A stretch of 49,669 bases of DNA from the sequence record PV340576.1, one strand, 5' to 3'. This document shows positions 40,334 to 43,405 of the stretch, piece by piece; within the stretch, counting starts at the first letter, position 1, and each line of letters opens with the position of its first letter. The notes under the pieces were generated by a model. It did no database searches. It was not told the DNA's origin and saw only the letters and a list, made by a program, of their open reading frames with translations. Source of the stretch: Escherichia phage PhiR68_2. Both the position numbers and the translations under genes were made by a program.

Positions 40334-43300
40334 ATGGCAGTAAAGATTTCAGGTGTACTGAAAGACGGCACAGGAAAACCGGTACAGAACTGCACAATCC
40401 AGCTGAAAGCAAAACGTAACAGCACCACGGTGGTGGTGAACACGCTGGCCTCAGAAAATCCGGATGAAGCCGGGCGTTACAGCATGGACGTTGAGTACGG
40501 GCAGTACAGCGTTATTCTGTTGGTGGAGGGATTCCCGCCGTCACATGCCGGGACCATCACCGTGTATGAAGATTCCCGACCCGGTACGCTGAATGATTTT
40601 CTCGGTGCCATGACGGAGGATGATGCCCGTCCTGAGGCACTGCGCCGTTTTGAACTGATGGTGGAAGAGGTGGCGCGTAACGCGTCCGCGGTGGCACAGA
40701 ACACGGCAGCCGCGAAGAAGTCAGCCAGCGATGCCAGCACATCAGCCCGTGAGGCGGCAACCCATGCGACTGATGCTGCAGATTCAGCACGTGCAGCCAG
40801 CACGTCAGCCGGACAGGCCGCTTCGTCGGCTCAGTCAGCGTCTTCCAGCGCAGGAACGGCATCAACAAAGGCCACTGAAGCCTCAAAAAGTGCTGCCGCT
40901 GCAGAGTCCTCAAAAAGCGTGGCAGCTACCAGTGCCGGTGCGGCGAAAACGTCAGAAACGAATGCCGCAGCGTCAGAACAATCAGCCGCCACTTCTGCAT
41001 CCACCGCGACCACGAAAGCGTCAGAAGCTGCCACCTCAGCCCGGGATGCGGCGGCCTCAAAAGAGGCAGCGAAATCATCAGAAACGAACGCATCCTTGAG
41101 CGCCAGTAGCGCAGCTTCCTCGGCAACGGCGGCAGGAAATTCCGCGAAGGCGGCAAAAACGTCCGAGACGAACGCCAGGTCTTCTGAGACGGCAGCGGGA
41201 CAGAGCGCCTCAGCTGCGGCAGGCTCAAAAACAGCGGCTGCGTCGTCTGCCAGTGCCGCGTCAACAAGTGCCGGGCAGGCCTCAGCCAGTGCCACCGCCG
41301 CCGGAAAATCGGCAGAAAGCGCCGCATCATCCGCTTCAACAGCCACAACGAAGGCTGGCGAAGCCACTGAGCAGGCCACGGCAGCAGCGAGGTCAGCTTC
41401 CGCAGCGAAGACATCCGAAACGAACGCGAAAGCGTCGGAAACCCGTGCAGAATCCTCAAAAACGGCAGCGGCATCGTCCGCCAGTTCGGCGGCGTCATCG
41501 GCATCATCGGCGTCTGCTTCAAAAGATGAGGCGACCAGACAGGCGTCAGCAGCGAAGGGCAGCGCCACGACGGCATCCACGAAGGCGACAGAGGCTGCTG
41601 GTAGTGCGAAGGCAGCAGCTCAGAGCAAAAGTACGGCGGAATCTGCAGCAACGCGCGCTGAGACAGCGGCAAAACGGGCAGAGGATATTGCATCCGCCGT
41701 GGCGCTTGAGGATGCGAGCACGACGAAAAAGGGGATAGTACAGCTCAGTAGTGCGACTAACAGCACTTCCGAGTCACTGGCGGCAACACCAAAAGCCGTT
41801 AAGGCCGCGTATGACCTGGCTAGCGGGAAATACACCGCACAGGATGCAACGACAGCACAGAAAGGGATAATCCAGCTAAGCAGCGCGACCAACAGCACGT
41901 CTGAAACGCTGGCGGCAACGCCAAAGGCAGTAAAAGCAGCCAATGACAATGCTGAGAAACGTCTGCAGAAAGATCAGAACGGTGCGGATATCCCTGGCAA
42001 AGACACCTTTACGAAAAATATTGGTGCCTGCCGTGCCTTCGGTGGGTCAGTAAGCACAACAACAGGAAACTGGACGACTGCACAGTTTATCGAGTGGCTG
42101 GATTCTCAGGGAGCATTTAACCATCCATACTGGATGTGCAAGGGTTCCTGGTCTTATGGCAATAATAAAATCATTACTGATACTGGCTGCGGTAATATTC
42201 ATCTCGCCGGAGCTGTCATTGAAGTAATGGGGATAAAGTCAGCGATGACGATCCGCATTACCACTCCGACCACATCCAGCGGTGGCGGAACAACCAACGC
42301 CCAGTTTACCTATATTAATCACGGAACAGATTATTCACCTGGCTGGCGAAGGGACTATAACTCCAGAAATAAGCCAACGGCATCAGAGATCGGGGCGCTA
42401 CCGTCAGGTGGAACAGCAGTATCATCAGTTAATCTGGCTTCAAAAGGTCGGGTAGCCGCGCTGACAGACAATACGCAGGGGGCAGCAGGTCTTGAGTTAT
42501 ACGAGGTGTATAACAACGGATATCCAACAACGTATGGAAATATCATTCACCTGAAAGGGATGACAGCCGTTGGCGAAGGTGAGTTACTCATCGGCTGGAG
42601 TGGTACAAGCGGTGCTCATGCTCCGGCATTTATTCGTTCACGACGGGATACGACCGACGCAAACTGGTCGCCGTGGGCGCAGCTTTACACCTCGGCTCAT
42701 CCTCCTGCAGAGTTTTATCCAGTCGGTGCACCAATCCCGTGGCCATCAGATACCGTTCCGTCTGGTTATGTCCTGATGCAGGGGCAGACTTTTGACAAAT
42801 CTGCATACCCGAAACTTGCAGCCGCTTATCCGTCAGGCGTGATCCCTGATATGCGTGGCTGGACGATTAAGGGCAAACCTGCCAGTGGTCGGGCCGTATT
42901 GTCTCAGGAACAGGACGGCATTAAATCGCATACCCACAGCGCCAGCGCATCCAGTACAGATTTGGGGACGAAAACCACATCGTCGTTTGATTACGGCACT
43001 AAATCCACGAATACCACTGGTGCGCATACCCATAGTTTAAGTGGCAGCACGAATGCAGCTGGTAATCACAGCCATAGAGATGGCCGTCGATTTAACCCCA
43101 GTGTTTTTAAAGATACTTATCAATATGGTTATACAAGCTCAGGTCAAAATACCTGGGGTGTACAAGGCTCAGTAGGTATGTCTACGGGGTGGTTAGCGAA
43201 TACCAGTACAGATGGTAATCATAGCCATTCACTGTCCGGCACAGCAGCATCTGCAGGTGCACACGCGCATACTGTCGGTATTGGTGCTCATACGCACTCC

Positions 43301-43405
43301 GTTGCGATTGGTTCACATGGACACACCATCACCGTTAACGCTGCTGGTAACGCGGAAAACACCGTCAAAAACATCGCATTTAACTATATTGTGAGGCTTG
43401 CATAA
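40334..43405 (+). CDS. stf: side tail fibre protein Stf, intact and expanded (1023 aa from ATG 40334)
   Basis: [66 protein letters not shown] as lambda Stf; long Ala/Ser/Thr-rich central repeats; C-terminal HxH-rich domain; stop overlaps tfa start (TAATG). Confidence 0.9.
41727..41990 (+). repeat. tandem 132-bp (44-aa) duplication inside stf encoding phage tail-fibre repeat motif ([28 protein letters not shown] / [28 protein letters not shown])
   Basis: Two ~80%-identical units with GGGATA landmarks at 41732 and 41864. Confidence 0.8.

Follow-up and report, generated by a model that had tools for sequence, protein, structure and literature searches.

A structurally described relative of the locus reported here is the side tail fiber (Stf) of Ur-lambda, a protein of 774 aa arranged as a collar domain (residues 1–91), linker, proximal coiled coil, hinge, distal domain and gp37-like receptor-binding domain. 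Four trimeric fibers are mounted on a dodecameric collar and bind OmpC, and residues 102–393 of lambda Stf were modeled as a trimeric coiled coil (PMC12617516). The same structural study describes the stf frameshift of laboratory lambda and states that lambda can form plaques without side fibers (PMC12617516); in the HK630 record, laboratory lambda misses a C relative to Ur-lambda. The T4 gp37 needle contains seven coordinated iron atoms along its length, with receptor contacts in the tip (PMC6957217), and the gene for its chaperone, gp38, lies directly downstream of gp37, as tfa does of stf. Other relatives include StfR of the Rac prophage of Escherichia coli K-12 (b1372, 1120 aa) and the myovirus fibers of Mu (S/S', PDB 8ju3 and 5yvq), P1 and P2.

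We analyzed a 49,669-nt stretch of Escherichia phage PhiR68_2 (PV340576.1), here called the window. It contains an stf gene which very probably encodes the side tail fiber of a lambda-like E. coli prophage belonging to the K-12 Rac StfR allele family. A preliminary description of this DNA had proposed an intact stf of about 1023 codons, longer than the 774-aa lambda-type protein and unlike the frameshifted gene of laboratory lambda, and all of this was confirmed. The features of the locus are as follows.

40296..40317, plus strand: terminator-like hairpin between lom and stf (AGCCCGCC-GGTTCA-GGCGGGCT, then a T run)
40334..43405, plus strand: stf, side tail fiber gene (1023 codons plus stop; from the open reading frame list, translation without internal stop)
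40334..40735, plus strand: N-terminal tail-attachment (collar) domain and linker, aa 1–134 (PF08400, phage_tail_N, E = 1.4e-71)
40640..41710, plus strand: proximal coiled-coil rod, aa 103–459, 51 heptads (heptad table and spectral power)
41243..41557, plus strand: 105-aa (15-heptad) block missing from lambda Stf, approximate position (blastn against Ur-lambda)
41711..41842, plus strand: Phage_fiber_2 repeat (PF03406), copy 1, aa 460–503
41843..41974, plus strand: Phage_fiber_2 repeat (PF03406), copy 2, aa 504–547
41975..42427, plus strand: central shaft module A, aa 548–698, P2 H / Mu S' / P1 Sv' type (phmmer, tblastn)
42428..42715, plus strand: central shaft module B, aa 699–794, P1 Sv' / Gifsy-1 Stf type (tblastn matches in P1, Gifsy-1 and Vibrio phages)
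42716..43402, plus strand: collar, HxH needle and receptor-binding tip, aa 795–1023, T4 gp37 D10–D11 type (PF07484, 2XGF)
43069..43227, plus strand: hypervariable cassette of the receptor-binding tip, aa ~913–965, lying between the third and fourth HxH motifs and bracketed by GGTAAYCAYAGCCAT (G-N-H-S-H) direct repeats
43405..43980, plus strand: tfa, tail fiber assembly chaperone, 191 aa (PF02413, Caudo_TAP, E = 6.8e-43; PHROG 105)
44078..44668, minus strand: pin-type serine invertase, 196 aa (Pfam Resolvase and HTH_7; 99% identical to K-12 pinR)

The open reading frame list allowed two starts, ATG 40334 (1023 aa) and GTG 40328 (1025 aa). We chose the ATG because the resulting MAVKISG N-terminus matched lambda Stf residues 1–94 in PDB 9e7m (phmmer); RefSeq annotates the same start for a 99.9% identical gene in NZ_CP102244. 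The hairpin upstream of stf, found by a consensus scan and read directly from the sequence, has 8 pairs, 7 of them G-C, and may act as a terminator. Upstream lie J (36102–39599) and lom (39670–40269, PF06316), and the order J-lom-stf-tfa is shared with lambda, PhiR26_1 and Rac. The tfa start overlaps the stf stop (TAATG), placing a dedicated chaperone gene immediately downstream of the fiber gene as expected for a gp37-type needle, and pin follows 98 nt beyond tfa.

Compared with known fibers, Stf is, by sequence, a mosaic of modules already known. Its first 493 residues, including the 51-heptad coiled coil, are ~97% identical to K-12 StfR. Homology to K-12 extends to aa 554, is lost over aa 555–783, returns at 93% for aa 784–904, is lost again over aa 905–962 and is 99% from aa 963 through tfaR and pinR. 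At the DNA level, the collar and needle flanks of K-12 stfR are 93–99% identical and tfa, pin and ynaE ~99%. In contrast, only one Phage_fiber_2 repeat is present in K-12 StfR; its central module (StfR aa ~523–875) is unrelated and longer, and its tip cassette is different and shorter, with 36 residues separating HxH motifs 3 and 4 where the window protein has 48. Ur-lambda Stf occupies the same locus and has the same collar domain (80% identity over aa 1–352), the same Ala-core type of coiled coil, one shared Phage_fiber_2 repeat and a gp37-type needle. However, its rod has 36 heptads and not 51, and it has one repeat where the window protein has two. In lambda the central region, made up of hinge and distal domain, is unrelated and measures 131 aa versus 247 aa; the lambda needle contains an eighth HxH motif and a duplication of 10 aa, and the tip cassettes differ.

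The N-terminal domain was assigned by PF08400 over its full length (1–134) and aligned without gaps, nearly identically, with lambda Stf residues 1–94 in PDB 9e7m/9mgh (phmmer, E = 1.3e-51). It is followed by a region rich in Ala, Ser and Thr (37%, 24% and 12% of aa 135–455), in which the recurring AAKTSETNA noted earlier was found three times (aa 203, 273 and 357). The same composition had been read as reiterated units; since self-blastn of the DNA of this region returned one 26-nt match and no real DNA repeats, that reading was replaced by heptad periodicity at the amino acid level. The heptad phase is constant throughout aa 103–459, giving 51 heptads without interruption, with Ala at 35 of 51 a positions and 47 of 51 d positions and Ser at 37 of 51 g positions. 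The spectral power of the Ala pattern at 3.5 residues was 45.9, whereas none of 5000 shuffles exceeded 8.2. These properties point to the long alpha-helical, Ala-core coiled coil of the Stf/StfR family. An AlphaFold2 model of the full-length monomer, built from a shallow alignment of 15 sequences (mean pLDDT 33.7, pTM 0.25), placed a helix at approximately aa 99–473 but was of too low quality to be informative or to support a fold search.

The equivalent lambda rod has 36 heptads. In blastn against Ur-lambda, the window aligned up to position 41242 and again from 41547, and the DA(S/D)TT landmark is at aa 460 in the window protein versus aa 355 in lambda. The net difference of 249 residues is composed of +105 (15 heptads), +44 (the second repeat), +116 (central module) and −16 (tip domain). 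The Ala/Ser region and the duplication, to which the extra length had been ascribed, thus supply 149 of the 249 residues; the largest single contribution, the longer and non-homologous central module (aa 548–794 versus lambda 399–529), had been overlooked. The gene is expanded relative to lambda, as had been said, but not relative to K-12 StfR, whose rod is of equal length.

The PF03406 profile matched two stretches in Stf (E = 9.1e-36), consistent with a family repeat of ~42 residues. The second copy is missing from K-12 StfR, lambda Stf and 979-aa variants. A 44-aa tandem duplication had been placed at 41727..41990; two 132-nt units were indeed present, located ~16 nt further left (41711–41974), but the idea of a recent duplication was not upheld. 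The units share 82 of 132 nt (62%) and 30 of 44 aa, with a longest exact run of 11 nt; a repeat search gave 74% identity over 107 nt, and Tandem Repeats Finder, applied to 39500–44500, did not call the pair and found only two tiny arrays. Judged by this divergence, it is an old repeat pair.

We considered whether stf is a contingency locus, in which the Ala/Ser units and the 132-nt pair are recent tandem repeats and slippage or unequal crossing-over tunes fiber length. Length variants do occur: 46 of 120 close cluster representatives have one Phage_fiber_2 repeat (979 aa) and the rest two, and coiled-coil indels of −28, −14, −7, −12, −6, −3 and +3 aa were observed in close relatives. The −28 deletions lie between AAK(S/T)SETNA motifs with at least two different boundaries, and a 9-nt tandem repeat (CGGCATCAT, 2.4 copies) is located at the site of the −3 variants. 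A rule that rod variants are strictly multiples of seven holds for +105 versus lambda and for −28, −14 and −7, and was dropped because the −3, +3, −6 and −12 variants break it. However, the DNA repeats, both in the coiled coil and in the 132-nt pair, are too diverged for slippage. Moreover, K-12 StfR likewise has 51 heptads, the 1023-aa length is common to thousands of sequences, complete genomes carry the gene at 97–98% identity to the window without any indel, and some rare variants may be assembly errors. We therefore consider this account unlikely. The proposal that repeat number is a hotspot for length variation survives only in that variants exist among relatives: the 1023-aa form is widespread and stable. 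The best explanation of the present form of Stf is module shuffling at conserved linker motifs (NGADIP, a 12-residue motif and the His boxes) and not recent repeat expansion. In line with this, of the first 120 IMG/VR loci listed with the tip cassette, only 14–16 matched the central module along 70% or more of its length, a low number for which contig truncation may be partly responsible.

The allele is common and already annotated, and its first description, though largely correct, contained nothing new. A search of 5426 complete E. coli genomes found at least 80% of stf in 636 of them. A single cluster at 90% identity comprises 4246 member sequences, and by length only the 979-aa form with one repeat is more frequent than the 1023-aa form. 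This distribution bears on a second alternative, namely that the prophage is defective and stf, like K-12 Rac stfR, is decaying and no longer in use although its frame is open. Rac is a cryptic prophage and DLP12 a defective one; the window nearly matches Rac in Stf residues 1–493, tfa, pin and ynaE, and its right end (ybcY, a tfa remnant, appY and ompT) resembles DLP12. On the other hand, terminase, portal, head and tail genes are represented in the window by open frames about as long as those of lambda, and the plaque-forming phages PhiR26_1 and mEp460_ev081 carry stf at 97–98% identity and identical length. Conservation of 1023 stop-free codons across hundreds of genomes argues for purifying selection, and decay appears distinctly improbable. 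Side fibers are dispensable in lambda, and thus even an intact stf could contribute little.

The central shaft further distinguishes Stf from its lambdoid relatives. Module A, which is unrelated to lambda Stf and K-12 StfR at this position, matched PDB 8ju3 (Mu S/S') over aa 539–698 (phmmer, E = 1.5e-85), with Mu S' residues 178–337 ~80% identical to this segment; tblastn gave 81% to P2, 73% to Mu S' and 74% to P1 Sv'. Module B matches P1 Sv' and has no solved relative, as a PDB sequence search with aa 688–799 was empty even at E = 10. The Phage_fiber_2 repeats and module A are common to the Mu, P1 and P2 fibers and Stf, but the order is permuted in P1, where module B is N-terminal to module A. 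In addition, these modules belong to myovirus fibers, whereas in the window they are fixed in a siphovirus side fiber.

In Mu and P1 the modules lie in invertible segments, and invertase-controlled switches are known from Mu (Gin), P1 (Cin) and e14 (Pin). The pin-type gene adjacent to tfa, together with a central module homologous to the Sv' segments that are inverted in P1 and Mu, could suggest a host-range switch in which Pin flips a segment carrying alternative fiber tips. However, the gix-bearing stretch is missing from Stf, and no gix/hix/cix-like site was found in the window: the best candidate had 8 mismatches in 26 positions to gixL/hixL, and the best match to a degenerate consensus had 5 mismatches at 18 specified positions, with none within stf. 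Convincing inverted repeats around the locus were also absent, and searching the window by tblastn with Stf and Tfa as queries revealed no inverted stf C-terminus or tfa. The sole extra tfa fragment (46569–46748) is 2.6 kb distant and lies on the strand that carries tfa itself. The arrangement is that of the K-12 Rac tfaR-pinR pair, and such a switch is highly improbable. An assembly artefact (collapse or expansion) in the Ala/Ser-rich, compositionally biased region has practically negligible probability, given that the same length and sequence occur in many independent complete genomes and phage genomes and that the region holds no long near-identical DNA repeats to mislead an assembler.

The C-terminal part of Stf had been described as rich in HxH motifs and likened to the metal-coordinating tip of T4 gp37. 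Both points stood, although the number of motifs is seven (aa 866, 898, 912, 963, 977, 986 and 995) and not five. Pfam Collar (PF07484) was detected at aa 798–845 (E = 1.5e-11), and the collar and needle matched PDB 2XGF, aligned from its residue 28 (phmmer, E = 6.6e-84). The alignment with Ur-lambda and T4 gp37 suggested beforehand gave identities of 71% and 66.5%, respectively, for aa 795–1023. When K-12 StfR was included, all 14 His residues of the seven motifs were invariant in the four sequences and thus coincide with the T4 metal sites. T4 gp37 shares the collar signature, the seven aligned HxH motifs and the identical C-terminal ~20 residues; the rest is unrelated, and its tip has 34 residues between motifs 3 and 4, versus 48 in Stf.

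The tip cassette is flanked by a direct-repeat family (43049–43075 and 43202–43228), and alignment detected no similarity of this stretch to K-12 stfR, lambda or T4. Because the tips share no sequence similarity, the OmpC/LPS contacts of T4 are not transferable to Stf. By analogy with lambda, T4 and Gifsy-1, the receptor might be guessed to be OmpC or LPS; the literature on PhiR26_1, PV340555, PP925833 and mEp460 yielded no paper on the receptor of this allele.

A separate observation concerns the T-even phage P896, in whose gp37 the 159-nt tip cassette is 97% identical in nucleotide sequence, with flanks of just 67–77% identity. The same codon is used at 44 of 45 conserved residues, and the flanking collar and needle of P896 are of T-even type. 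The window Tfa is 27% identical to the protein in the gp38 position of P896, the comparison being with this protein and not with T4 gp38. We lean slightly towards the view that the 159-nt cassette is a currently mobile host-range module, recently exchanged between lambdoid prophages and virulent T-even phages. The wording 'His box' was not found in the best-matching literature; the work of Tétart (1996/1998) is cited here through PMC3157838.

Trimerization, metal content, expression and receptor binding of Stf are all assigned by homology. By analogy with Ur-lambda, three chains would form one fiber and four fibers would be mounted at the tail tip on a collar of 12 N-terminal domains. The Ala-core trimeric coiled coil of 51 heptads would serve as the proximal rod, with a predicted length of ~53 nm at 0.148 nm per residue, ~15 nm beyond that of the 36 heptads of lambda. 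Two Phage_fiber_2 repeats and the probably beta-structured P2 H / Mu S' / P1 Sv'-type shaft would join the rod to the gp37-type collar and needle. The needle would be held by the seven HxH motifs, the trimer coordinating seven metal ions (iron, as in T4), and the hypervariable tip of 46–48 residues at its end would contact the host receptor. Tfa, probably translationally coupled to stf, would act as the folding chaperone. Such a fiber may provide fast, reversible primary adsorption, after which J would bind its own receptor.

As first described, the locus adds very little that is new: this prophage tail fiber is widespread and its annotation is correct, and the coiled-coil rod, Phage_fiber_2 repeats, Mu/P2/P1-type shaft and gp37-type iron needle are textbook knowledge or recently published. 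Its use is as a clean worked example in which Stf length differences are split into modules, and in which the rod and its lambda counterpart differ by complete heptads. For the engineering of lambda-based delivery particles, the receptor bound by this widespread tip type is of interest. If the cassette is indeed mobile, lytic phages would draw receptor specificities from prophage reservoirs within short times, and P896, if the case is real, would be a concrete recent example of a lytic phage borrowing its receptor tip from prophages.

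The stf gene of PhiR68_2 is a single open frame of 1023 codons, from the ATG at 40334 to the stop at 43405, as the preliminary description had it. An in-frame GTG lies two codons 5' of this ATG and would extend the gene to 1025 codons. We place the start at ATG 40334 because the N-terminus MAVKISG matches lambda Stf residues 1-94 in PDB 9e7m and a 99.9% identical gene in RefSeq is annotated from the same position. Gene order here is the canonical one of lambdoid phages (J, lom, stf, tfa):

Genes and features around stf
36102-39599, + strand, J (1165 aa)
39670-40269, lom, between J and stf
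43405-43980, + strand, tfa, tail fibre chaperone, directly 3' of stf
44078-44668, - strand, serine invertase (196 aa, Resolvase and HTH_7), convergent to tfa
45766-46434, - strand, ybcY-like methyltransferase
46491-46748, + strand, tfa remnant
47294-48043, + strand, AppY-like regulator
48293-49246, - strand, omptin

The stf stop and the tfa ATG overlap (TAATG, 43403-43407), which suggests translational coupling. A strong terminator-like hairpin (40296-40317, + strand) is present between lom and the stf start. J is 90% identical to J of PhiR26_1; the two diverge at about aa 800-960, including a 28-aa insertion, and their last ~200 C-terminal residues are nearly identical.

Stf, encoded next to its chaperone Tfa, is a lambdoid side tail fibre of the StfR type, ordinary and already known. 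Among 5426 complete Escherichia coli genomes, 5172 had some match, and in 636 the match covered 80% or more of the gene; many matches were ungapped, single 3072-nt pieces with 97-98% identity. The isolated phages PhiR26_1, mEp460_ev081 and PhiR42_1 carry stf at 97-98% identity, the arrangement from lom to the methyltransferase occurs in 346 genomes, and one 90%-identity protein cluster contains 4246 member sequences with a 1023-aa representative. An assembly artefact is excluded, since the same gene is found in many genomes and isolated phages.

Alignment with the 774-aa Ur-lambda Stf confirmed that the window protein is longer, and the segment differences sum exactly to 249 residues:

Segments of Stf and their length relative to Ur-lambda Stf
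N-terminal domain, aa 1-134: PF08400 (E = 1.4e-71)
Coiled coil, measured to the DA(S/D)TT landmark (window aa 460, lambda aa 355): +105
Phage_fiber_2 repeats, two in the window and one in lambda: +44
Central region, window aa 548-794 (247 aa, nt 41975-42715), lambda aa 399-529 (131 aa): +116
Central module A, aa 539-698: similar to PDB 8ju3, the Mu S/S' fibre (E = 1.5e-85)
Central module B, aa 699-794: tblastn matches to fibres of P1 (Sv'), Gifsy-1 (Stf) and Vibrio phages
C-terminal domain, aa 795-1023: Collar PF07484; 229 aa in the window, 245 aa in lambda: -16

The additional length had been ascribed to Ala/Ser units and a 44-aa repeat, which account for 149 of the 249 net residues but miss the central region, the largest single item, in which similarity between window and lambda was not detectable. 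In lambda, the longer C-terminal domain includes an additional duplication of 10 aa (FDYGTK) and an eighth HxH unit.

The Ala/Ser region is a heptad pattern and not a set of DNA repeats. The motif AAKTSETNA does recur, as reported, at aa 203, 273 and 357, but self-blastn of 40634-42000 found only one 26-nt match besides the Phage_fiber_2 pair, so the proposed reiterated units do not exist as DNA repeats. Residues 135-455 consist of 37% Ala, 24% Ser and 12% Thr, and aa 103-459 form 51 uninterrupted heptads with Ala at the first (35/51) and fourth (47/51) positions and Ser at the seventh (37/51). The 3.5-residue Ala signal keeps a constant phase throughout aa 103-459, with a spectral power of 45.9 compared to a maximum of 8.2 in 5000 shuffles. 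Ur-lambda Stf has the same pattern in 36 heptads (aa 103-354); a cryo-EM/cryo-ET study assigned its residues 102-393 to the proximal part of the side fibre, modelled as a trimeric coiled coil (PMC12617516). The window rod has exactly 15 heptads (105 aa) more and, at 0.148 nm per residue, would be ~15 nm longer. This rod is not peculiar to the window, as StfR of the K-12 Rac prophage, ~97% identical over aa 1-493, likewise has 51 heptads. Within 40477-41949, both strands carry several long ORFs, in frames other than that of stf, that overlap the coiled-coil coding region, for example 40831-41580 (249 aa) and 40926-41693 (255 aa) on the minus strand; most likely they are stop-free by composition (GCN/TCN/AGC codon periodicity) and are not genes.

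A 132-bp tandem duplication had been described at 41727..41990. The 44-aa pair exists, but it lies at 41711-41842 and 41843-41974, and it is an old, diverged repeat pair rather than a recent duplication. The copies share 30/44 residues and 82/132 nucleotides, with a longest common exact run of 11 nt; Tandem Repeats Finder did not call the pair, and Pfam assigns both units to Phage_fiber_2 (PF03406, E = 9.1e-36).

Repeat number had also been proposed as a hotspot of length variation. Such variation exists: 46 of the best 120 cluster representatives (identity 92% or more, with P0113 at 78% the one exception) had a single repeat (979 aa), which starts with the first half of copy 1 and continues C-terminally as copy 2, and rare coiled-coil indels of -28, -14, -7, -12, -6, -3 and +3 residues occurred in the same set. 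The -28 indels had at least two different deletion boundaries between AAK(S/T)SETNA motifs. Strict heptad quantisation of coiled-coil length is rejected by the -12, -6, -3 and +3 indels. However, divergence of the underlying DNA is too great for slippage, and the frequent length classes are stable. Rather than a hotspot, we see in the forms with one and two copies old alleles that recombination has reassorted. Overall, what the preliminary description observed was largely correct and its interpretation partly so.

The gene is a mosaic. The counterpart of the N-terminal domain is the collar domain of lambda Stf in 9e7m (E = 1.3e-51). Module A is 81%, 74% and 73% identical to P2, P1 Sv' and Mu S' proteins, respectively (tblastn). 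Module B had no solved structure related by sequence in a PDB sequence search; it also matches the inverted repeat arm of the P1 C segment, and in P1 Sv' it lies N-terminal to module A, an order permuted relative to the window. DNA comparison with K-12 stfR defined the joints: homology extends to aa 554, the end of an NGADIP motif, aa 555-783 are unrelated, aa 784-904 are 93% identical, aa 905-962 (the tip cassette) are again unrelated, and identity is 99% from aa 963 through tfaR, pinR and ynaE. Compared to Mu S', the window fuses the terminal NGADIP of the constant part directly onto the variable part and thus, on our reading of the alignment, would lack the gix-bearing stretch that Mu has between two NGADIP motifs. 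This joint fits published accounts in which tail fibres evolve via exchange at conserved motifs.

The invertase DNA is 99% identical to K-12 pinR. We found no gix/hix-like crossover site, suitable inverted repeats or inverted alternative fibre cassette anywhere in the window. The Pin-type enzyme is an orphan, arranged like that of Rac, and not part of a Mu/P1-type inversion switch; a role in trans, on other prophages, is possible. Further right, next to the ybcY-like methyltransferase, is a second tfa C-terminus, truncated and 73% identical to Tfa aa 132-191. The AppY-like AraC-family regulator and the OmpT-like omptin come next, at the window's right end. From the K-12 map, we take this right end to resemble the defective prophage DLP12, and pin and ynaE to resemble Rac.

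The C-terminal domain contains seven HxH motifs (aa 866, 898, 912, 963, 977, 986 and 995) where five had been listed. It matches the T4 gp37 needle 2XGF (E = 6.6e-84), with identities of 66.5% to T4 (tblastn) and 71% to lambda (BLASTP), and when the window, lambda, K-12 StfR and T4 gp37 sequences were aligned together, all 14 His residues of the seven motifs were invariant; the suggested likeness to the metal-binding T4 tip is therefore correct, and it is long established. The T4 needle coordinates seven iron atoms along its length, and its OmpC and LPS contacts are located in the tip (PMC6957217). A passage in PMC3157838 describes the g37 C-terminus and g38 of T4 as lambda-derived (also references 71-74 in PMC3945230). 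The interval between motifs 3 and 4 is hypervariable (48 residues in the window, 45 in lambda, 36 in StfR and 34 in T4), with no mutual similarity in this alignment. Ur-lambda Stf binds OmpC (PMC12617516) and possibly also unmodified O16 antigen, whereas the Gifsy-1 Stf target is LPS core galactose; transferring a receptor specificity to the window tip is thus unjustified.

The tip cassette alone (57-aa query) was found in 7 of 50,697 phage records: six lambdoid phages and one T-even myovirus, Escherichia phage P896 (Gaprivervirus). The 48-codon cassette of P896 gp37 is 97% nucleotide-identical to the window and uses the same codon at 44 of 45 conserved residues, whereas identity drops to 67-77% in the collar and needle on either side (codons identical at 15/42 and 16/37). 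The high-identity tract (window ~43069-43227, P896 record OL451225 ~3510-3668) is flanked at either end by GGTAAYCAYAGCCAT, coding for G-N-H-S-H; these copies are the direct-repeat family D5. The P896 flanks match other T-even gp37 genes at ~80% in two pieces that skip the cassette. In IMG/VR, the cassette is abundant in prophage-sized contigs (at least 120 loci; none larger than 76 kb among the matches listed). Of the 120 loci listed, 110 have a collar flank that is at least 95% identical, but only 14-16 of the 120 matched 70% or more of the length of the window's central modules. In these loci, some of which are truncated, the cassette is thus usually joined to other central modules, and one tip appears to be combined with several different shafts. 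With one T-even record as its basis, the P896 case looks like a recent transfer of the receptor tip alone between a lambdoid and a T-even phage via His-box motifs, probably from prophage to T-even phage. Exchange at His boxes is the mechanism that Tétart and colleagues put forward, according to a passage of PMC3157838. De Paepe et al. (PMC3945230) reported that they had found no E. coli phages with recent temperate/virulent mosaicism, and they regarded the stf case as ancient; the 97% tract against 67-77% flanks suggests that the P896 cassette is a recent tip exchange between temperate and virulent phages.
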